Positions 22,449 through 56,675 of a DNA stretch of 64,000 nucleotides are shown piece after piece; position 1 is the first letter of the stretch, and each line of letters opens with the position of its first letter. Origin of the DNA: a virus; IMG/VR virus record IMGVR_UViG_3300026290_000001; one strand, given 5' to 3'. The translations under genes were made by a program, and so were the position numbers. The notes beneath the pieces were generated by a model. It worked only from the letters and a program-made list of their open reading frames with translations. It was not told the DNA's origin and searched no databases.

Positions 22449-23741
22449 TCAGTCATGAGATGAATTGGCTCTGTTCTGTTCATATATAATCCATGATTTT
22501 CTTGCATTAATTCTTTGCATGTTAGATATTTTCGGTGTCTTCATACCTCTGGGTGCATTACTAAAATCTATTTTTTCACCATCTATACCCATAAGAATGG
22601 CATAACCCGTAGACATTCTACCTTTAATAAAATATTCATTACCTATATACCTTACTTTATCAAACTTCCTAAATCCTTCTATTTTACCTGTAGGTATCTT
22701 CTGATGACTTCTTACTCCTTTTGCCTGTTGGTAATCGCCTTTAGGGATACACTTTTTTAATACAGCTTTTTCAGTTTTAAAGCTTACATCAATTAACCCT
22801 ATATCTTCAATATTATTTAAACAGGCAATAGCTACAGCATCGTAGTAATGCTCTTTTGGTAATCCCATTAGCTGTCTATGTTCTTTGGTAATAAATCCAA
22901 AGGTTTCTTTTGCATTTGGTAGCTGTCTTAATAATTGTTGTCTTATACTATTCATCTGTGTTGTGTGTTTTAATTGTCCTTTAATTTTACCATTCTTCTT
23001 TAATTTAATTCCTCCTTTGTGCAAACTATTATGACAAGTTTTACAAAGTGTAATTAAATTTTCTGCATCATCTGAGCCACCATTTTTTCTAAAAACTATA
23101 TGATGTACCTCTAATCTGCTGTCTTTACTTTTTCCTTTGCAATACTGGCAAATATATTTATCTCTACTTAATACATAAGCTTTAGTATTAGCAAATCCAT
23201 AATTAGTTCCTTTTTGATAAAGCCATTTATTACTTAATACTGCTGGATTTTTTAAAGCATGTGGGTCAAATGTTGCTGTTTCTATTATTATATTTGTAAT
23301 GGGCATTATTGATTTTGCAAAATCAATTTCTTTTAAGTGTGAATTAATTTTACTTGTCATTGTAGGAGAAAATCTATCTTTTTTAATGCTGTTTTTCCTA
23401 TTATTAAATCTAGGTTCCCTATATCTAGTTTTCCTATTCCTTCTAGTTCTCCTATATTTAGCTCTTTTGTCCATTTTGTCAGATATATCATTTCTAATTT
23501 CTACTTCTGATATATAATACACTTCATTTTCGTCATTTGCTACTGCACTTCCTATTTTACTACTACCAGTATCAATTCCTAAAGTTAAATCTTGTGTATA
23601 GTCTGTAGCATGATATAGTAATTTAATTGTAAATGGAGTTCTTCTTATGCATTTTGCTTTACCATCTTTTAACAATAATCTTGCTATTGCTGGTTTACAA
23701 GGCATTAAAGGACTCCCATCTTCATTAATTACATAAACCAT
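22449..23741 (-). CDS. iscB: IscB-type RNA-guided nuclease (OMEGA system effector; PLMP + split RuvC + HNH)
   Basis: N-terminal PLMP motif (GSPLMPCKPAIARLLLKDGKA), RuvC-I LGIDTGSSKIG, Arg-rich bridge RRTRRNRKTRYREPR, RuvC-II IIIETATFD, HNH CQYCKGK...EVHHIVFRKNGGSDDAENLITLCKTCH, RuvC-III HYYDAVAIA. Confidence 0.75.
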   Translation of the reverse strand: MVYVINEDGSPLMPCKPAIARLLLKDGKAKCIRRTPFTIKLLYHATDYTQDLTLGIDTGSSKIGSAVANDENEVYYISEVEIRNDISDKMDKRAKYRRTRRNRKTRYREPRFNNRKNSIKKDRFSPTMTSKINSHLKEIDFAKSIMPITNIIIETATFDPHALKNPAVLSNKWLYQKGTNYGFANTKAYVLSRDKYICQYCKGKSKDSRLEVHHIVFRKNGGSDDAENLITLCKTCHNSLHKGGIKLKKNGKIKGQLKHTTQMNSIRQQLLRQLPNAKETFGFITKEHRQLMGLPKEHYYDAVAIACLNNIEDIGLIDVSFKTEKAVLKKCIPKGDYQQAKGVRSHQKIPTGKIEGFRKFDKVRYIGNEYFIKGRMSTGYAILMGIDGEKIDFSNAPRGMKTPKISNMQRINARKSWIIYEQNRANSSHD

Positions 23742-24030
23742 AAAATCAAATCCTTTCGGATAAATACTCTGCTTAAAAGCAGGTTATGCGTATCTATATA
23801 CTATTACCATATATAGAATTCGTCCTCATCTCGACAATGATAAAATAGCTTATATGTATATCACACCGAGCCTTACCCTCCAACTCTACTTAGTGATATA
23901 CGATAGAGCAATGGTCTGATGCGTCAACCAAAGGTATCATAACTATTCTATCGTAGTATAAATTTCTCTATACTAAGTCTGGTGAACTTAGACTTTAGAA
24001 GCCTCCGACTTTAGTCGGGGGTAGTTCACT
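23742..24030 (-). ncRNA. candidate omega-RNA scaffold upstream of iscB
   Basis: About 285 nt with no ORF, GC-enriched relative to surroundings, several stem-loops on the - strand (cccccgact-aaa-gtcggagg; ctaagt-tcaccag-acttag; ctgct-ttta-agcag) directly 5' of iscB. Confidence 0.45.
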
Positions 24031-44468: not shown

Positions 44469-44537
44469 AATTAATTACCTCCTTTTCTTTATAAATAAAA
44501 AGGAGAGGGAAGGTTATTATCCTTCAAATTCTCCTAG

Positions 44538-45327: not shown

Positions 45328-46080
45328 TTATTTAATGTTGATAAAATTGTCAACAGGTTTACCTTCAGGTTGTAAAAGAATATCCAATTCAATACCCATT
45401 GATTCTTCGATATAATTCTTTATTTTAATAGAATCCAATTCACCACTTTTAATCATTTTTGCCGCTTGTTCGACCACTGAATTCTTATATCCACTAGGTA
45501 ATTTATCAAACTTTTTCTTAAATGAATTAAAATCAAGTCTTAAAATATCAGATACATTATTCAATCCAAGAATTTCTTCATAATGTTTGAAAATGTTTGC
45601 ATATTTCAAAATTTCAATTTCATCATCTTCTATTACTCTAATCCAAGGCTCTCGTATAAATCTTGAGTCAGTATTTTTAAGATCAATAAATTCACCAAGT
45701 TCTATATTATTTGTATCTCCAGGGTTTTCCCAAACAATTTTATAACCAATTTTACGTTTGGATTTATAAATCAATCTACCACTGGATATATTTTTTAAGC
45801 AAATCATACGATTAAGATCTGGTTTCCAAGGTTCTTCTTTTGGTTGGATATTTTTTTTAGATGTTTGAGAAGGTTTAGATTCAAGTTGGGAAGTATCGGT
45901 ATTCAATTCTAAACTTTTTTTAATTCCTTCTACCTGTTCATCATCTAGTTTAGTCATGTGACTTTTTACTTCATATCCTAAATCTTGTGCTGTTTCAATA
46001 ATCTTTTTATTCTCAATATCTAGTTCCTTTGCCAATTCAAATACTTTCATATTAAAATTTACTCCTCTCATTCTTTGCAA
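45328..46080 (-). CDS. hypothetical protein with Rho-N/SAP-like N-terminal motif
   Basis: N-terminus MKVFELAKELDIENKKIIETAQDLG. Confidence 0.3.
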   Translation of the reverse strand: MQRMRGVNFNMKVFELAKELDIENKKIIETAQDLGYEVKSHMTKLDDEQVEGIKKSLELNTDTSQLESKPSQTSKKNIQPKEEPWKPDLNRMICLKNISSGRLIYKSKRKIGYKIVWENPGDTNNIELGEFIDLKNTDSRFIREPWIRVIEDDEIEILKYANIFKHYEEILGLNNVSDILRLDFNSFKKKFDKLPSGYKNSVVEQAAKMIKSGELDSIKIKNYIEESMGIELDILLQPEGKPVDNFINIK

Positions 46081-46086
46081 TTAAAA

Positions 46087-46105
46087 AGAGGGGATTAACC
46101 CCTCT
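46087..46105 (-). terminator. rho-independent terminator downstream of the capsid gene
   Basis: Perfect 7-bp GC-rich stem agagggg / cccctct, 5-nt loop, followed by a T-run on the - strand. Confidence 0.55.
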
Positions 46106-46146
46106 AAATAATTACTATAAAATTATATTGATAATTTATAATTTAA

Positions 46147-47145
46147 TTAGTCAGATATTTGATATCTGCCATAAAGGTCAGTAATTACAATACCAGTACC
46201 GTACCGAGTAGCTGCAAAGTAATCTTGGGTCAAATCTTGGTTGGCAAGTGCATCACCACTGATAATTCTCATTTCACCTTCGGTTACAAATTTTACAGGT
46301 TTTGCATCAACGGATACTATATAAAGATCACTTTCAGAAAGTTTGAAATTATATGTACCAACGGTGTGAACCTGTTTGATTCTCATCATAGGAGTACCAT
46401 TAAAGTTACCATAATAACCCATTTTGTACATATCATCTTTTGCAGCATCAGCTATAATAGCAGTAGTTACTTTCCGTAGTGCTTTTCTAGTTCCTGCAAT
46501 CATGGCAGATTTGCCAGTGGCGGCTTCAACGTGTTCAATTACATCAAGTAAATCTTCTTCATCAAAAGAACCATTGTCGGTGAATCCAGCAGGTAAACCA
46601 GAGAAAGCACCAGTGAAAGCGGTGTAAATATCATCGTTAATTTTCAGTTTGAAAGCCTTATCTAATGCTTCAAGCATTTCGTTAAAGTCTACACGTCCGG
46701 CGAGTAAACGAGAAAGATGTTCGTATATTTTGATGCCTTTCCAAGAGGTGGTGATAGAAACATTAGTTCCAACATCTAAACGCTGTCTACGTAGAGATTG
46801 AGTTCCATCGGCAATTTCTGAAATTACCAACATGGTGCGGTCTGGCGCATAGAAACTATTCTGATCACCAAGGGCAAGGTTCTTATATTCCACAAAATTT
46901 TCAAAGAAATTATCATCAGGAAGTCCTTCAAGGACAGTGTTTTGAAGAATCTCTTCTAATATTTCAAACATTGCTACGCCATTTCTACGGAATGATTTAT
47001 AATCCAATTTGGTAGAACCACCATTGAGTTCTATAAAATGTTGGCGCAATGCCTCTGTTGCATCGGATTTACTAAATTTATCATGTGAAAATTTATTTTT
47101 ATAAATATCTTTCGCTAATTTTACCAAAGTTTTATTATCTTCCAT
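46147..47145 (-). CDS. major capsid protein (putative)
   Basis: 332 aa, position after portal/scaffold region, followed by a strong terminator. Confidence 0.5.
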   Translation of the reverse strand: MEDNKTLVKLAKDIYKNKFSHDKFSKSDATEALRQHFIELNGGSTKLDYKSFRRNGVAMFEILEEILQNTVLEGLPDDNFFENFVEYKNLALGDQNSFYAPDRTMLVISEIADGTQSLRRQRLDVGTNVSITTSWKGIKIYEHLSRLLAGRVDFNEMLEALDKAFKLKINDDIYTAFTGAFSGLPAGFTDNGSFDEEDLLDVIEHVEAATGKSAMIAGTRKALRKVTTAIIADAAKDDMYKMGYYGNFNGTPMMRIKQVHTVGTYNFKLSESDLYIVSVDAKPVKFVTEGEMRIISGDALANQDLTQDYFAATRYGTGIVITDLYGRYQISD

Positions 47146-47182
47146 TTAATTTATTCCTCCTTTATTTATATTAATAGATTAA

Positions 47183-47713
47183 TTATCTAACACTAATCAT
47201 CTCTACCACATTAAGATACTTCGAACCATTGTAGATTTCTCTTGCAATGATTTTTCCATAGAAAACTTCACTCTTAGCAATGTTGGCTACTTCTGCCCAC
47301 TTAACACCTGTGGCGTCAGGAGCAACATAGGAATTAACTGCGGGGATGCCACTACCACTGCTAATCGGAGTAATGCAATCATCGCTGATACTAAAAGTGT
47401 CACCAACTTCAAGAGGTATTAGAGTAATATTCGCACCTGCGGCATTTTGAAACTTGTCTAATGCCTGACCAGATTTCGTTGATTCATCATAGATGATTTC
47501 TGGACTGGCTACAAGGTAACAATTAGGAGTAGTTTCACCCCCAGGTGCCACACACTTCCAGAGTTCTCTTTCTCCCGTAATTAGGGAATGCAATTTTACG
47601 ATACATCCATTGTCAATAGCAGTAGGATCAGCACCTACATAGTACCGTCCACTCTTGATATTACCTGCTTTAGTAGCCTTGATTGCGTCTGTTCTTACGA
47701 TTCCGTATGCCAT
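47183..47713 (-). CDS. hypothetical head protein (scaffold or decoration candidate)
   Basis: Immediately upstream of the putative capsid gene. Confidence 0.3.
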   Translation of the reverse strand: MAYGIVRTDAIKATKAGNIKSGRYYVGADPTAIDNGCIVKLHSLITGERELWKCVAPGGETTPNCYLVASPEIIYDESTKSGQALDKFQNAAGANITLIPLEVGDTFSISDDCITPISSGSGIPAVNSYVAPDATGVKWAEVANIAKSEVFYGKIIAREIYNGSKYLNVVEMISVR

Positions 47714-47729
47714 ATTATAAATTCCTCCT

Positions 47730-48710
47730 TTAAATTTTTAGTTCATTTTTTAAAATTTCCTCAATATTATCAAATTCCCAATAGGGAATACGAAGCAAAA
47801 TTATATTATGCTTTTTACAATATTCATTTTTTAGTTCATCATGAATTTGTAAAGTTTCAAACTCCTTCTTGGTCATCATACCTTTAACCCATTCATAATG
47901 TTGTTTCCCGTCATATTCAATCAACATTCTTAATTGGGTTTTTTCTTTGTCCCAAAATACAGGAACATCAAATTTAAGTAAACCTCCTCCAACGCCCTTT
48001 AAATCATCAAAAGTATATTGGGTGTGATGTGGAATATCATATTTTGTAAGTAAAATATCTAATTGTTTCTCTCCTTTAGATTCTGCACACTGGGAACAAC
48101 CTCTATTATTGCAACTTCTACTGAATATTTTTGCTTTCCATTCATACCCACATTCTAAACATTTCCACCAAGCGTACTTATTACAACCATAAGTTATATC
48201 ATAGGGAGTTAAATCGCCATTTTTGGTAGGATGCCACTCTAAGGTTAGGTCTGGTCTTTTAGTAGCGAGACAGTTTGATAATGTTACTTGCGCCCCTACG
48301 CAAACACCACATCCATTACCACTATAAATACCACTCCAATCAGCTAGAAAAATTTCTCCACAATCTTCTTTTAAACATCTCCATTGCATTTTAGTTTTTG
48401 CATTGCTATAATTTGTACTTATTAACTCAAAAGGTTTATTATTTAATACACACCAATTTTTCATATTTTGAATTGTGTATGGATTAGAAACATCAAATTT
48501 CATTGGATTGCTTCTTAAAAATACCGATATACTTTGAAAATAATAATAACTATCCATATCTTTAAATGTTAATTTTGAAAGCGCATTCTTATATTTCAAA
48601 TCAATCAAAATATAACCTTTTGCTAATAAAGTTTCCTTCACTAACTCATAAGTCCATTTAGTACCACTTGTATAACCCATAAATTCCTCCTCATCCTTGT
48701 TTACAAACAA
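47730..48710 (-). CDS. homing-endonuclease-like protein (zinc ribbon + PD-(D/E)xK/Vsr-like nuclease domain)
   Basis: Cys-rich region with EWHPTKNGDLTP zinc-ribbon motif, C-terminal ...LIEYDGKQHYEW...LLRIPYWE nuclease-like motif; intrusive position between capsid-assembly genes. Confidence 0.45.
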   Translation of the reverse strand: MFVNKDEEEFMGYTSGTKWTYELVKETLLAKGYILIDLKYKNALSKLTFKDMDSYYYFQSISVFLRSNPMKFDVSNPYTIQNMKNWCVLNNKPFELISTNYSNAKTKMQWRCLKEDCGEIFLADWSGIYSGNGCGVCVGAQVTLSNCLATKRPDLTLEWHPTKNGDLTPYDITYGCNKYAWWKCLECGYEWKAKIFSRSCNNRGCSQCAESKGEKQLDILLTKYDIPHHTQYTFDDLKGVGGGLLKFDVPVFWDKEKTQLRMLIEYDGKQHYEWVKGMMTKKEFETLQIHDELKNEYCKKHNIILLRIPYWEFDNIEEILKNELKI

Positions 48711-48827
48711 AAATAAGGAGAGGGAAGGTTTTTATCCTTCAAATCTCCTTTTATATAAAGAGGTAGTGGGAACATACCCCACCAGGAGTAACCTCCAAAT
48801 CTTAATTTCTTTTAATTTTTACTCTAC

Positions 48828-50294
48828 TTACTCTTTCTTCGAATACTTCTCTAAAAATTCATCAACTTTACTATGATTCTCTTCAATCTTCTTACTAAAA
48901 TCCAACTTCACTTTATCATTTTTATTTTTCTCTTTTGGTTTTGAAAAATTATTAGCACTCTGAATACCTAAAATCATATAACACTCTTTTTCCAAATCTT
49001 TAATTTTAAATTCAGATGCGGTTTCTTTCAATTTTTCATATTCAGGAATACCTTGAAGTTTATCATCGAATCGAGAGAAAAGATTTTGTTCGGATTCTTT
49101 GCGTTCTTCGGCAAATTTTATTGCCTGATATTCACGCAGAGCAATTACTTCTTCTTCTAGAGCAGAATAATTGTTTCTCATAATATCAATTGCTTCTTTT
49201 TCTTCTTTTGTAAGTCTATATTGGAAAAGTTCAATTCTTTCTCCCACAAAAGATACAACATCTTCTTCCTTTTTATATCCTTGACGATATATTTTTGTAC
49301 CTTCCCAATTTTCATATTCAAAACGATCATCATAAACCTGATCAATAAAATACCATTCATTATCTTCATCTTCCACGGGAGATAATAATTGATATAAAGC
49401 ATATCTTATCTCTGAATGCGAAAGTTCAAAAGATTTGATGAATTTTTCTGGTTCGTTATTATCATCGTTTTCTGAATCTAAATCATTGGTAGAATACAAT
49501 TCTTTTAATTTCTCCTCGATTTCCTCAAATTGCATCTCTTCTATATTAAAAGGTAATTCTTCTAAAGTTACCTTATATTCAGAAAGCAAAGCAATTATCT
49601 TTTCATCCACATTACTACCTCCTTTTTCAGTTTTATCTATATCATAATTAGAAAGAGTATTTTTTAACTCTTCCATCATTAAGATAAACTTTTGTTTTGT
49701 ATATTCTTCAAATGTTCCAGTAGTACCCAAAGCATTTTCCATACCAGTACCAGAATCTTTATTTAAAAATGTAATACCTTGATATCTATAATCAGTTATA
49801 TTAAACACCTTATCTTTTGCATTAAAAGTATATCCATCAATAATAATTTCCATAGATAATTTTATATTTTCATCTCTTTCAATTATATCTTCTGCATAAT
49901 TTGAGTACTCACGCCAAATATATGCATCCACAAAAACATAATTTTTGCCATTAAATTCTTTTATTTCATGATTACAATTTTCTGGCACAAGCCCAATTGG
50001 GGTTTCCTGAAATATTACTTTATATTCTCCTTCTTTTATCTTGTTGGGTTCTAAAGTCATATCATGGCCACCAAATTGAGGTTGTCCATCTTCATCAAAA
50101 ATTACATTTGCAAGAATTGGAATGTTTTTTATAGAATCTTTTGCATTTTCCATATCTGACACTATAAAATTACTCTTATTTGGGTTCACGCCATCATGAC
50201 ACACCCTTAATCGCATTTTTATAAATTTTTCAGAATCAAAAGATTCATCCACTTCATATGTGGTAGCAAGTGAAAGATGTTGCAATTCATTCAA
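48828..50294 (-). CDS. putative prohead protease/scaffold protein
   Basis: Position directly downstream of portal; acidic coiled-coil C-terminal half. Confidence 0.35.
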   Translation of the reverse strand: MNELQHLSLATTYEVDESFDSEKFIKMRLRVCHDGVNPNKSNFIVSDMENAKDSIKNIPILANVIFDEDGQPQFGGHDMTLEPNKIKEGEYKVIFQETPIGLVPENCNHEIKEFNGKNYVFVDAYIWREYSNYAEDIIERDENIKLSMEIIIDGYTFNAKDKVFNITDYRYQGITFLNKDSGTGMENALGTTGTFEEYTKQKFILMMEELKNTLSNYDIDKTEKGGSNVDEKIIALLSEYKVTLEELPFNIEEMQFEEIEEKLKELYSTNDLDSENDDNNEPEKFIKSFELSHSEIRYALYQLLSPVEDEDNEWYFIDQVYDDRFEYENWEGTKIYRQGYKKEEDVVSFVGERIELFQYRLTKEEKEAIDIMRNNYSALEEEVIALREYQAIKFAEERKESEQNLFSRFDDKLQGIPEYEKLKETASEFKIKDLEKECYMILGIQSANNFSKPKEKNKNDKVKLDFSKKIEENHSKVDEFLEKYSKKE

Positions 50295-50525
50295 TACTTA
50301 ATCACCACCTTTACTAAAAAATCATTTTATTACTAAAAATAAATTGCTTCTTATCTAGTTGATTGAAATCAAATGATATAGAAGAAGAATTCTCAAAAAT
50401 AAATAAACTATCGGTAGAAACCAATAGTTTAAATCCATTTTGCAACAATTTATTTTTTAGTTCTTGATTAAAACAGTGAATAAACTTCACATTAGGATAC
50501 CTCCTTCTTTAAATTAAATATTTAA

Positions 50526-52052
50526 TTATGTCCTATTATCAGGATTATTACTATCAACCACCTGACCTGCTTCTGTTGATCCTTCTATATTATCCCCCTT
50601 ACTTTTTGCCCCACCTTTATTAGAATCCTGATAAGCTGATTTAAGTGGCACAAATTTATCCGTAATTTTCATCACATCATTTTCAAGTAGTATCGAATTC
50701 ATCACATCAGAAGGAGATAGTCCCAAAGACGCACAATAATGACGTTTTACTGGAAGTCCAACTGTACTTGCTTCTCTATACATAGTTGCTAATTCATTTT
50801 TGTTATATCTTGTAATGTCCAAGAAAGTAACCTTGAAATTTATTTTTTTATTTTCATCTTTCAATCTGCGATTTATCCATCTCTCAAATTGCCGTAATAA
50901 TTGAAATACAGTTGCTTCATCACTCATAATGGCTTTGTTCAAGGCGGCACCAGATGCTTTATCACTATTAAAAATAAGTTTTGGTACACCAGCCGAATTA
51001 TAAATTGAATTCTCTGCCAAACTTACTCCATCTAACTCTCTTTCACTTTTATTAAGTTTAATGGATTCTACGGAATCAAAAGGGGATAATGCGATTCCGA
51101 TTTGATTAGGTAAATTACTACCCATAAGCTGATAGTACTCTTTGGCAATATCTAAACTTAAGGCGAAATTATTGGCAGAATCATCACTTTTGTTATATGG
51201 AATCTTAGCAATAAGTAGTAAATAGTTTTCTAATTCAGTTTTAGACATCTGAATATCCTTATACTCATAAAGTGAATAAATATCTTCAAATATTCCCGCC
51301 AAAGGTGGTATAGAATAATCGGTGTTAGATATTTTAATGCAAATAGTTTTACTAGAATCTAACTCTTGCCATTTCATATTCTTTCTATCTTTTTTATAAA
51401 TTTCATATTTTTCTCTAAATTCAGGAGCATACCTTTCTAAATCTTTTGGATAGGTGTCAAAATAATTGAACGAAAAACTGTAATTGTAGCACCCATCCTC
51501 AATACTACTTATAGCACAATAATCAGGGTTTAATAAATCAAAAAAGAAAGAATTTTTAGTTGAATAAATATACCCATACGCAACATCATCTATAAATGCC
51601 CTATATGTTAATTTTGAAAATTCATGTTTAATATTCATTGTTTCTAATAAATTTAATGTTGTTATATATTTTTTTTCTATTGTTGTAATTAAATCTTTAG
51701 TAATTTCATAATCAGTTTGGTTATATATATCTACCACATAATCAAAAGTTAACATTGTGGAAAAATAATCAATTAATCTTCTATAATGAGAAGAACTATC
51801 TAACAAAAACCTTGATAAATCTCTTAGTTTCTTTTCATATTTATGAGGATTTGCTAACCATGCAATTACATCATTTTTTGAAAATGTTTTATTAAAAGTA
51901 GAATTTGGTTGAGTATTATTTAAATCTTTTTTTATGTATTTTGCAAACTCAGCAAAATGAAGCATCATACGTTGAAACTGCATATCTTCTTTACTTAATG
52001 GTACATCGGTTTTAATAATTTCTTCTTTAATATCTGTTTTAGTATCTGTCAA
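50526..52052 (-). CDS. portal protein (putative)
   Basis: 508 aa directly downstream of large terminase. Confidence 0.55.
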   Translation of the reverse strand: MTDTKTDIKEEIIKTDVPLSKEDMQFQRMMLHFAEFAKYIKKDLNNTQPNSTFNKTFSKNDVIAWLANPHKYEKKLRDLSRFLLDSSSHYRRLIDYFSTMLTFDYVVDIYNQTDYEITKDLITTIEKKYITTLNLLETMNIKHEFSKLTYRAFIDDVAYGYIYSTKNSFFFDLLNPDYCAISSIEDGCYNYSFSFNYFDTYPKDLERYAPEFREKYEIYKKDRKNMKWQELDSSKTICIKISNTDYSIPPLAGIFEDIYSLYEYKDIQMSKTELENYLLLIAKIPYNKSDDSANNFALSLDIAKEYYQLMGSNLPNQIGIALSPFDSVESIKLNKSERELDGVSLAENSIYNSAGVPKLIFNSDKASGAALNKAIMSDEATVFQLLRQFERWINRRLKDENKKINFKVTFLDITRYNKNELATMYREASTVGLPVKRHYCASLGLSPSDVMNSILLENDVMKITDKFVPLKSAYQDSNKGGAKSKGDNIEGSTEAGQVVDSNNPDNRT

Positions 52053-52139: not shown

Positions 52140-54014
52140 TTATCGTTTGCGAATTTGGGGTTTTTTAAATTGAAATAATTCTTGGACATTAATATCGTTG
52201 TTGGTTTTTCTTTGTGTAATATGTTTTCTTCTTAATTGTTGCAAATACCATGCTAACATGGCAATGCAATATGCACGGTCATCGTGCATGATTCTTTCTT
52301 TATCAGGTGGAAGATTATATCTATATCCACCATTAGGACTATCAAATCTATAAATATTTACCAATTCTTCTTTTGCCAAATCAATATTTTTTAATGCTAA
52401 TTCTTCATCAAAAGATAATTTATGTATTTTTTGACTAGATTGAATATCTTTCTTTTTATTTTTATTATCATCTTCATATTCTACTTCCTGATTCTCAAAT
52501 AAAGAAATATATCCCTTCATATCATACTCTTCTGTAAATGATATTAAATCTAATCCCAACATTTCAACTAATGCATCAAACATTTCATTTTTATATTTTT
52601 TAGGACTCATTAATTTTAATTTATCTACTGCATTTGGAAATTTAGTAATATAATCAGCAGATTCTATTTTATCAATCAACCCTTTATGTGGATTGCCTTG
52701 TTGATCAATCCAATCCTCCATAAGATAGTCTGCAATATTTACGCCAGCACCGCCAGCACCCGAATCAATGAGAATTGCTTCAATATTTTCATAATCAGCA
52801 CATTGTTTTCCATTGTAATCTAAAATCATTTGTTTTAAATATGCAATTTGTTCTGGTGTTCTCATTGGTGTTTTTTTCTTCTTACCAATGTCTACAAAAC
52901 TAACACCATTGCAAATTCTCATTTTATATCCAACTTGTTCATCAAAATAAATTTCACCAACTAAAGATACCGAATTATCATAACTCCTAGCAGGATCATA
53001 TCCTATCACAAACTTACTATTATCAGTGTTATATAAAATAGGAGGTCTAACTTCACTATTTCTAATTATAACTGATCTTTTAATTGCCTGATTTTCTCCG
53101 CCTTCATTAGAAAATTTATTATAATACTCTCTTAAGGCTTTAATTTTATTCTTTTTCATAGCATCTTCTACAACTTCTTTTTTCAACAAAGATGGGTAAA
53201 CCTTACCATTATAAGTAGAATTAAATACAATTTCTACATTTATATCTGCAACAAAATAATTTTTATTACCTAAAAACATCTCTTTGGCATAATCTCTATA
53301 TACCTTGTAAAAATATGTGTCCGTACCAGATGCTGAAGATGCAAATATTGCTTGGTTAGGAAACTCTTTAGGTAATAAATCTAAGTTTATATCTCCACCT
53401 AATTTAAAGTTACTATCTTGTGTAATAAAGGGTAGGGAAGTAATAAACAATTCTTCTGGTGCAAAACCACTTTCATCATAAATATTTAAATTACTTCTTT
53501 TACTTCTATTATGATCAAAAGCACCATTTAGTGAATTTAAAGCACTTCCATTATAAAGTTTATATTGAAATGAAGAAGGATTATGTGTAAATCCATCAGT
53601 ATCAGACCTACTTTTAACTGTTTCATTATAAAAAACATCTGTTAATCCAGTAAAAGAAGCAATTTCTCTTTTTGCTATTTTTTCTATTTTCATAAATGCT
53701 TCTTGTGCTTGACTACCAACTCCACTCATTACATATGCTTGAAAATTAGATATTAAATTAGTCTTTGCCATTGCAAAAGGTGCAATCATTGTAGTTTTAC
53801 CACTACCCCTACTCTGACACCATACACAAAAAGGAGTTGTCCAACTCATCATAAAAACATACTTTTGACTATCTAAAAAATCAATTCCATAGAAACGTTC
53901 ACAAAAACGAATGGGGTATTGCCTCCCCCATTGTACAATTTGTACTAAACGCATATATCCTTCTAATTTTCTTTGAGACATTTCTTGTTTTGTTTTTTGA
54001 ATAATATATTCCAT
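52140..54014 (-). CDS. terminase large subunit
   Basis: Walker A QSRGSGKTT, Walker B-like NIYDESG, C-terminal nuclease motifs IGYDPARS and LIDSGAGG. Confidence 0.8.
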   Translation of the reverse strand: MEYIIQKTKQEMSQRKLEGYMRLVQIVQWGRQYPIRFCERFYGIDFLDSQKYVFMMSWTTPFCVWCQSRGSGKTTMIAPFAMAKTNLISNFQAYVMSGVGSQAQEAFMKIEKIAKREIASFTGLTDVFYNETVKSRSDTDGFTHNPSSFQYKLYNGSALNSLNGAFDHNRSKRSNLNIYDESGFAPEELFITSLPFITQDSNFKLGGDINLDLLPKEFPNQAIFASSASGTDTYFYKVYRDYAKEMFLGNKNYFVADINVEIVFNSTYNGKVYPSLLKKEVVEDAMKKNKIKALREYYNKFSNEGGENQAIKRSVIIRNSEVRPPILYNTDNSKFVIGYDPARSYDNSVSLVGEIYFDEQVGYKMRICNGVSFVDIGKKKKTPMRTPEQIAYLKQMILDYNGKQCADYENIEAILIDSGAGGAGVNIADYLMEDWIDQQGNPHKGLIDKIESADYITKFPNAVDKLKLMSPKKYKNEMFDALVEMLGLDLISFTEEYDMKGYISLFENQEVEYEDDNKNKKKDIQSSQKIHKLSFDEELALKNIDLAKEELVNIYRFDSPNGGYRYNLPPDKERIMHDDRAYCIAMLAWYLQQLRRKHITQRKTNNDINVQELFQFKKPQIRKR

Positions 54015-56599: not shown

Positions 56600-56675
56600 T
56601 GGAGCCGAGTATAGGATTTGAACCCATAATCTGTTGTTTACAAGACAACTGCCTTATCAATTTGGCTAACCCGGC
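56600..56675 (-). tRNA. tRNA-Thr (anticodon UGU), CCA encoded
   Basis: 76-nt cloverleaf folded by hand: 7-bp acceptor stem, T-arm with TTCAAAT loop, anticodon stem GTTGT/ACAAC with loop CTTGTAA. Confidence 0.7.

Follow-up and report, generated by a model that had tools for sequence, protein, structure and literature searches.

The 64,000-nucleotide (nt) stretch of the IMG/VR virus record IMGVR_UViG_3300026290_000001 analysed here, referred to below as the window, carries on its minus strand a gene (47730..48680) encoding 316 amino acids (aa) that is very probably mobile and free-standing and specifies a homing endonuclease of the Vsr-like kind. It is inserted between a 488-aa gene resembling YonD_N on its upstream side and a 176-aa gene, p176, on its downstream side, the latter being followed by the presumed capsid gene. 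Directly observed at this locus were a modular protein architecture, conserved catalytic and zinc-ligand residues, presence and absence of the gene at a single site, allelic diversity at that site, paralogues elsewhere, the remnant of a deletion, and a leader that is transferred together with the gene. A first-pass annotation of the sequence had already proposed a free-standing, homing-endonuclease-like gene among the head genes, and in this respect it is supported.

The reading frame delimited in that annotation (47730..48710, minus strand, 326 aa, with a TTG start) does exist as an open reading frame (ORF); its start, however, was misplaced. Judging from the sequence, translation almost certainly begins with the ATG at 48680, just downstream of GAGGAGGAATTT; the resulting protein has 316 aa, and the stop codon is located at 47730-47732. 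The same ATG is used by public gene calls, both for the protein P0001 (316 aa, 100% identical) and for the alleles of two related loci, L032 and L033, and the TTG at 48710 lies within the hairpin and T-run upstream of the gene. The ORF may be regarded as genuine rather than fortuitous since it has 1358 homologues in the protein database at E ≤ 1e-5 and matches three PHROGs, namely phrog_559 (endonuclease; E 4e-40), phrog_9084 (homing endonuclease; E 3e-22) and phrog_7140 (intron encoded nuclease; E 4e-12). A scan of the protein against NCBIfam returned nothing but a spurious match to an IS91 zinc-binding family (E 0.098). The gene is free of frameshifts and internal stop codons, and the ratio of nonsynonymous to synonymous polymorphism (pN/pS) is about 0.24 in comparison with the allele of locus L006, a value based on 21 differences only. 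No second member of the family was found within the window, and a megablast search with positions 46000-51000 yielded no close DNA relatives among cultured phages.

Evidence for mobility comes from the distribution of the gene among related viruses. Thirty related loci (designated by L and a number) were gathered using the two downstream proteins as queries, and seven proteins of the window were mapped on them. The window's own contig, L001, L003/L013 and L006 (96.5% identical) carry the nuclease gene between the YonD-like gene and p176; it is absent from at least 11 contigs (L005/L015, L007, L008/L024, L016, L017/L018, L019, L020, L021, L022, L029 and L030), in which the two flanking genes are simply adjacent. 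The first-pass annotation would have been contradicted by a gene conserved at this position in all relatives; conservation of that kind was not seen at the site. In the gene-less contigs the spacing between the YonD-like gene and p176 amounts to 22-84 nt and ends in AAAATTAAAGGAGGAATTTATAATATG, and no hairpin is found there. Where the gene is present it is intergenic, with both flanking ORFs at full length, as is typical of a free-standing homing gene, and the presence/absence polymorphism affects one precise site in otherwise collinear relatives.

One pair of loci, L004/L014, documents how the gene can be lost. In the portal, YonD-like and capsid proteins they share 97% identity with the window, and the stop codon of the YonD-like gene (TAA, then G) is followed by 63 nt encoding RIPYWDFDNIETILKNELKI and a stop codon, which correspond to codons 296-316 of the nuclease gene. 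Because these last 21 codons remain, the lineage of L004/L014 must have lost the gene by deletion of the segment equivalent to 47790..48826 (minus strand) of the window, i.e. the leader and codons 1-295. A search for further empty-site alleles, made by scanning metagenome contigs with the YonD-like gene's 3' end, returned only the contig of L004.

The same site harbours markedly different alleles in other loci. That of L033 encodes 319 aa and is 54.5% identical to the window protein; that of L032 encodes 388 aa with two DUF4379 modules (57-71% identical); and that of L027 is an intact gene for 481 aa with three DUF4379 modules and a nuclease domain of a different subtype. Members of the family occupy further positions as well, as expected for homing genes: paralogues were found in the gap between the portal gene and the 58-aa gene p58 (L022/L030) and in the gap between genes p106 and p177 (L005/L015, 383 aa; L023/L028), and the homologue of Staphylococcus phage MarsHill (E 6e-9, 96% coverage) is situated inside an intron of the virion RNA polymerase beta gene.

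Four units can be distinguished in the protein on the basis of 36 aligned homologues and an AlphaFold2 model of very high confidence (predicted local distance difference test score, pLDDT, 93.5). Module 1 (aa 1-60; 48501..48680, minus strand) has, according to the alignment and the secondary structure of the model, an alpha-beta-beta-alpha topology without any cysteine, and is presumed to be a DNA-binding module; its counterpart in relatives bears a CxC...CxxC motif and is present one to three times, and Cys-less first modules are common among full-length homologues. Module 2 (aa 61-128; 48297..48500, minus strand) is a zinc ribbon of the type CxxxxC...CxxC, in which C102, C107, C124 and C127 are invariant, and shows weak internal similarity to module 3. 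The latter (aa 129-200; 48081..48296, minus strand) is a DUF4379 treble-clef zinc finger with W149, H150, C174, C177, C195 and C198. The zinc-ribbon motif pointed out in the first-pass annotation, EWHPTKNGDLTP, belongs to this finger, which was recognised by Pfam at aa 146-200 (E 1.3e-19) and is similar to DUF4379 proteins of trypanosome mitoribosomes in the PDB both in sequence (E 4.7e-13) and in structure (Foldseek probability 1.0). All eight cysteines of modules 2 and 3 are invariant among 36-44 homologues that are 32-75% identical. A Pfam search with the N-terminal 128 aa gave no family even at E ≤ 10, and no NUMOD or helix-turn-helix family of Pfam was matched anywhere in the protein, the N-terminal part of which consists of zinc treble-clef modules. 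The CapR profile matched weakly in one homologue (E 0.004), and relatives carry up to three DUF4379 modules.

The fourth unit is the C-terminal domain (aa 201-316; 47733..48080, minus strand), delimited by conservation, the AlphaFold2 model, Foldseek and the matches to phrog_9084 and phrog_7140, and identified as a nuclease domain of the PD-(D/E)xK/Vsr-like type. It contains the motifs EYDGKQHYEW and LLRIPYWE, in which the first-pass annotation had seen signs of a nuclease. In the model it is an alpha/beta domain composed of a helix, three to four strands, a long helix, a strand and a helix; modelled alone, it reached a pLDDT of 95.1 and a predicted template modelling score (pTM) of 0.86. When the whole model was compared with the PDB by Foldseek, the C-terminal matches included I-Bth0305I (3r3p_B; probability 0.95, target-normalised TM-score, TMt, 0.59) and the very-short-patch repair endonuclease Vsr (1vsr; probability 0.77), with E values of 0.12-0.25 for these two structures, as well as TnsA and the DUF559-like structure 3hrl (TMt 0.67). 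With the domain alone the top match was TnsA (E 0.03), accompanied by the R2 retrotransposon endonuclease, BstEII, DrdV, Vsr (query-normalised TM-score, TMq, 0.53) and 3hrl (TMq 0.53, TMt 0.66), and 3r3p was outside the top 50. The best matches of the domain are all nucleases of the PD-(D/E)xK superfamily (E 0.03-0.2), as the first-pass annotation would lead one to expect, and a PD-(D/E)xK-type fold in general is well supported by the model. Among structural neighbours in BFVD are many proteins of Firmicutes phages and giant viruses named homing endonuclease, DUF2726 or 'Group I intron-associated VSR homing endonuclease', and sometimes 'restriction enzyme'.

Within the same set of 36-44 homologues, residues E204, D238, E255, G258, H261, D281 and K284 of the C-terminal domain are invariant. 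Four of them follow one another in the composite order E, D, (x), H, D, with E204 in helix 1, D238 in strand 2, H261 just after strand 3 and D281 in the long helix, and would correspond to E25, D51, H69 and D97 of Vsr. No HNH family of Pfam was detected in the protein at E ≤ 1. Since the domain has no HNH motif and is alpha/beta and PD-(D/E)xK-like, the label 'HNH endonuclease' attached to PHROG 559 and to many GenBank records is a misnomer; on the strength of the model, the nuclease appears to be Vsr-like or EDxHD-like, and it is not HNH.

A large unrecognised outgroup of EDxHD/Vsr homing endonucleases, whose members have an array of three to five modules, each of about 60 aa and akin to CapR, DUF4379 or DUF723, plus a domain of some 100 aa with a distant relationship to EDxHD/Vsr, was described in a recent paper on the presence of group II introns in phage genomes (Nucleic Acids Research 2025; PMC12350094). 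The window protein agrees with that description in having several DUF4379/CapR-related modules of about 60 aa in front of a Vsr-like domain, its three modules being the DUF4379 finger, the CxxxxC...CxxC ribbon and a Cys-less copy; moreover, it is directly homologous to the intron-borne member from MarsHill over 96% of its length. It differs in being free-standing in an intergenic region of the head module instead of residing in a group I or group II intron, in being short (three modules, the first without cysteines), and in possessing a structured leader of its own.

The EDxHD family was defined by E170, D196, H213 and D222 of I-Bth0305I, which are equivalent to the four Vsr residues named above, and the same study (PMC3239194) mentions Hef as an example of a Vsr-like homing endonuclease that is free-standing. 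The window protein resembles this prototype (PDB 3R3P) and Vsr of E. coli (1VSR) in its probable Vsr-like fold and presumably in the order and placement of E...D...H...D; as in I-Bth0305I, the DNA-binding region is N-terminal. In contrast to these likenesses, HMMER and hhalign show no sequence similarity, the DNA-binding part consists of zinc treble-clef modules rather than the NUMOD/helix-turn-helix elements of I-Bth0305I, and I-Bth0305I is encoded by an intron in recA. The profile of DUF2726, of the PD-(D/E)xK clan, matches the nuclease core weakly, but its score is below threshold, and DUF2726 proteins generally lack a zinc-finger array.

T4-like phages carry free-standing homing genes (seg, mob and the Vsr-like Hef), and for those of T4 upstream hairpin or terminator-like elements and sequestered ribosome-binding sites are reported. 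The gene of the window is comparable to these in its intergenic position within a conserved gene order, its sporadic occurrence among relatives and its mosaic neighbours, and also in the hairpin/terminator-like elements and the apparent, here predicted, sequestration of the ribosome-binding site. It differs from them in its DNA-binding modules, in its location in the head module, and in belonging to a low-GC phage of the Firmicutes type related to the group of 949, Sundance and Thrax.

The stop codon of the YonD-like gene and the ATG of the nuclease gene are separated by 147 nt that hold a first hairpin, a repeated element and a T-run. A leader of about 115 nt (48681..48797, minus strand) moves with the gene: it is near-identical in front of the L032 and L033 alleles and absent in gene-less relatives, and because the near-identity begins at about 48797 in L032/L033 even though the 3' end of the YonD-like gene of L033 differs, the leader must be counted as part of the cassette and not of the neighbouring gene. 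Stem-loop 1 (48764..48784, minus strand) has the sequence TGGTGGG-GTATGTT-CCCACTA. Stem-loop 2 (48717..48748, minus strand; GGAGA(TTT)GAAGG-ATAAAAA-CCTTC(CC)TCTCC) is the repeated element, and together with the T-run at 48703-48716 it resembles a terminator. In addition, a helix of 15 base pairs (48687..48720, minus strand), present in both the minimum free energy (MFE) and the centroid structures, is predicted to form between CUCCUUAUUUUUGUU and AACAAGGAUGAGGAG, the latter comprising the Shine-Dalgarno region, which is paired with the side of the descending arm and T-run. Such a helix would sequester the Shine-Dalgarno sequence and compete with the lower stem of stem-loop 2. The predicted fold has an MFE of -46.2 kcal/mol (z = -3.0). 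A hairpin and T-run precede the gene in all five of the distinct cassettes examined; the hairpin of the L027 leader is of like shape with altered stem sequences.

The first-pass annotation had also mentioned a repeated stem-loop beside the gene, and this element is real, occurring in exactly two copies in the window (repeat matches at 48715-48740 and 44500-44525) where none is expected, one of them within the gene's own leader. The second copy (44502..44534, minus strand) is located between p106 and p177, exactly at the site where L005/L015 and L023/L028 carry a homing-gene paralogue, the leaders of which differ in sequence from that of the window. It is found also in L004 and L006, and is absent in more distant relatives without a gene at that site; a scan of viral contigs for additional copies of the hairpin returned only the same close relatives. 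The copy at 44502-44534 may mark where a cassette has been lost, or it may be the original from which the present leader was copied. A different repeat, the 13-nt exact direct repeat AGGAGGAATTTAT, represents the ribosome-binding regions of two genes, that of the homing gene (48679..48691, minus strand) and the native one of p176 (47717..47729, minus strand). Recombination between its copies would delete the ORF and keep the leader.

We tentatively suggest that the mobile unit is the entire cassette, in which the structured leader of about 115 nt, with its two hairpins, T-run and Shine-Dalgarno-sequestering helix, moves together with interchangeable nuclease alleles of 316-388 aa and serves as an insulator or translational switch within an essential late head operon; the second stem-loop copy would then have one of the two origins named above, and repeated cutting and repair would drive the hypervariability of p176. 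This extended proposal is possible rather than probable.

The following course of events may be envisaged for a gene that is free-standing in the sense of being intergenic and borne by neither an intron nor an intein. The three tandem modules of about 60 aa, treble-clef or CapR-like, one Cys-less and two zinc-binding, would bind a long DNA target and deliver to it the C-terminal Vsr-like nuclease domain (EDxHD type, PD-(D/E)xK superfamily). During co-infection with a gene-less relative the enzyme would cut the DNA of the relative at or near the junction of the YonD-like gene and p176, and repair by homologous recombination from gene-bearing genomes would copy in a cassette of about 1.07 kb, i.e. 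leader and gene, along with flanking sequence. The leader hairpins, the T-run and the helix pairing with the Shine-Dalgarno sequence would probably keep expression low or time it within the late head operon. Nuclease activity, the position of the target, cleavage of both strands and regulation by the leader are inferred in this scenario.

Several observations weigh against a functional Vsr-like homing endonuclease. No member of the subfamily combining CapR/DUF4379 modules with a Vsr-like domain is known from the literature consulted to cleave DNA or to have been characterised biochemically. The likeness to the solved structures of Vsr and I-Bth0305I exists at the level of the fold only, at Foldseek E values of 0.03-0.2. 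Searches of the PDB with phmmer and with profile hmmsearch left the nuclease domain unmatched at E ≤ 10, the only proteins found being the DUF4379 zinc-finger proteins of trypanosome mitoribosomes. Of the nuclease profiles named in the first-pass annotation, PD-(D/E)xK was represented by DUF2726, matched at aa 243-309 with E values of 6.7e-4 to 4.5e-3 and 17.2-19.8 bits against a Pfam gathering threshold of 24.7 (the match reaches E 7e-6 in homologues); Vsr gave no signal when the family alignment was compared with the E. coli enzyme (hhalign probability 0.1). No fresh invasion has been captured, because L004, the sole very close relative without the gene, is a deletion derivative and not a naive empty site, and the naive empty sites come from phages that are 60-85% identical. 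As for the leader, covariation is nearly nil, with one compensatory pair among five sequences, and since it is so small the regulatory role, whether transcriptional insulation, translational sequestration or both, is suggested by analogy with the free-standing homing genes of T4. A terminator-like hairpin in front of p176 and the capsid gene also looks costly to the phage, and may therefore terminate inefficiently.

A nuclease that no longer cuts anything, being an inactive, decaying homing endonuclease fixed in this lineage, is an unlikely explanation. The homing cycle does predict degeneration once a gene is fixed, the deletion in L004 shows that the lineage loses the gene, and module 1 lacks the cysteine ligands that relatives keep; however, the ORF contains neither frameshifts nor stops, the eight zinc ligands of modules 2 and 3 and the candidate catalytic residues are all intact, the low pN/pS and the very high confidence of the AlphaFold2 model point in the same direction, and a first module without cysteines is shared with many full-length homologues. 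The intact ORF, the conserved catalytic residues and the pN/pS value could also be read as signs of a domesticated nuclease kept for the benefit of the phage, for example to exclude competitors or to degrade the DNA of the host or of a rival, the patchy distribution then reflecting turnover of accessory genes. The name 'restriction enzyme' of some BFVD neighbours and the adjacent mosaic hot spot in p176, which fits the nuclease-bounded exchange described in PMC10055350, are compatible with this as well. We consider such domestication quite improbable: the family occurs at no fewer than three intergenic sites in one head module and in introns of other phages, and several divergent alleles at one exact site with one leader are the signature of site-specific selfish insertion. 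The two explanations are in any case not fully distinct, because marker exclusion itself results from homing endonuclease activity.

Residence of the gene in a self-splicing intron, or in a transposon with a TnsA-like nuclease, has very little probability. Homologues elsewhere are intron-borne, TnsA is the top Foldseek match of the isolated domain, and the 13-nt direct repeat brackets the ORF. Yet the genes on either side are two distinct, full-length units that in relatives lie next to each other. The intron hypothesis was rejected since no Rfam intron family matched at E ≤ 1 in 47000-49500. The transposon hypothesis was rejected likewise, there being no terminal inverted repeats, no partner transposase and no target-site duplication beyond the 13-nt repeat, which is the Shine-Dalgarno and spacer region of two genes.

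As a free-standing Vsr-like homing gene, the locus is otherwise what may be expected in large phages of the Firmicutes type, a clear if unremarkable representative of a recently recognised family. For the subfamily that joins a zinc-finger array to a Vsr-like domain it offers a natural series: four divergent alleles share one site, other relatives have that site empty or with only the remnant of a deletion, and paralogues occupy two sites nearby. Sequences that could serve as targets in an initial cleavage assay are thereby supplied. Furthermore, the widespread 'HNH endonuclease' label (PHROG 559, GenBank) is corrected.

The window matches the IMG/VR contig UViG_3300009671_000358 (99.6 kb). 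The gene order on its minus strand around the nuclease gene is large terminase (52140-54014), portal (50526-52052), a 58-aa gene, the 488-aa gene (48828..50294; phrog_3313), the nuclease gene, p176 (47183..47713; phrog_4147) and a 332-aa gene (46147-47145; phrog_4088). The 488-aa protein is a YonD_N-like head-module protein; it had no match in Pfam, and the role of scaffold or protease assigned to it in the first-pass annotation found no support there. Annotated major capsid proteins of Bacillus phages Thrax and Kirov share 35-40% identity with the 332-aa protein, as do structural proteins of Brevibacillus phage Sundance and of the Lactococcus 949 group, and for this reason the nuclease gene can be said to lie between capsid-assembly genes.

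The interior of p176 is hypervariable among close relatives. Over approximately 47150-47626, the window, L014 and L006 are 53-87% identical in nucleotide sequence, in comparison with 93-100% in the flanks, so that three different alleles are found in these three loci and a mosaic hot spot exists beside the homing gene. This variability does not correlate in a simple manner with the presence of the homing gene. Nuclease genes are associated with boundaries of genetic exchange, according to PMC10055350, and the mosaicism of p176 fits exchange bounded by a nuclease; the homing gene may have had a causal role in it, which is conjectural.

Some further features of the window deserve mention. In L014, the gap between the portal gene and the 58-aa gene, equivalent to about 50506-50520 of the window, holds an additional ORF of 91 aa (3373-3648 of L014) that is not present in the window; this is the gap that carries a homing endonuclease of the family in L022/L030. 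Downstream of the major capsid gene, a 250-aa protein (45328-46080, minus strand) has an N-terminal IF2_N domain (PF04760, E 7e-12), which is unusual for a head-module gene. A transfer RNA gene (56603-56675, minus strand; Rfam RF00005, 65 bits) is located upstream of the packaging module. Finally, a HEARO RNA (23819-24029; Rfam RF02033, 121.7 bits, E 1e-24) lies directly upstream of a 430-aa ORF (22449-23741, minus strand) with RRXRR (E 2e-54) and HNH (E 4e-14) domains, and from their sequences the two together (22449-24029) look like an IscB/omega-RNA (OMEGA) element in a phage genome.

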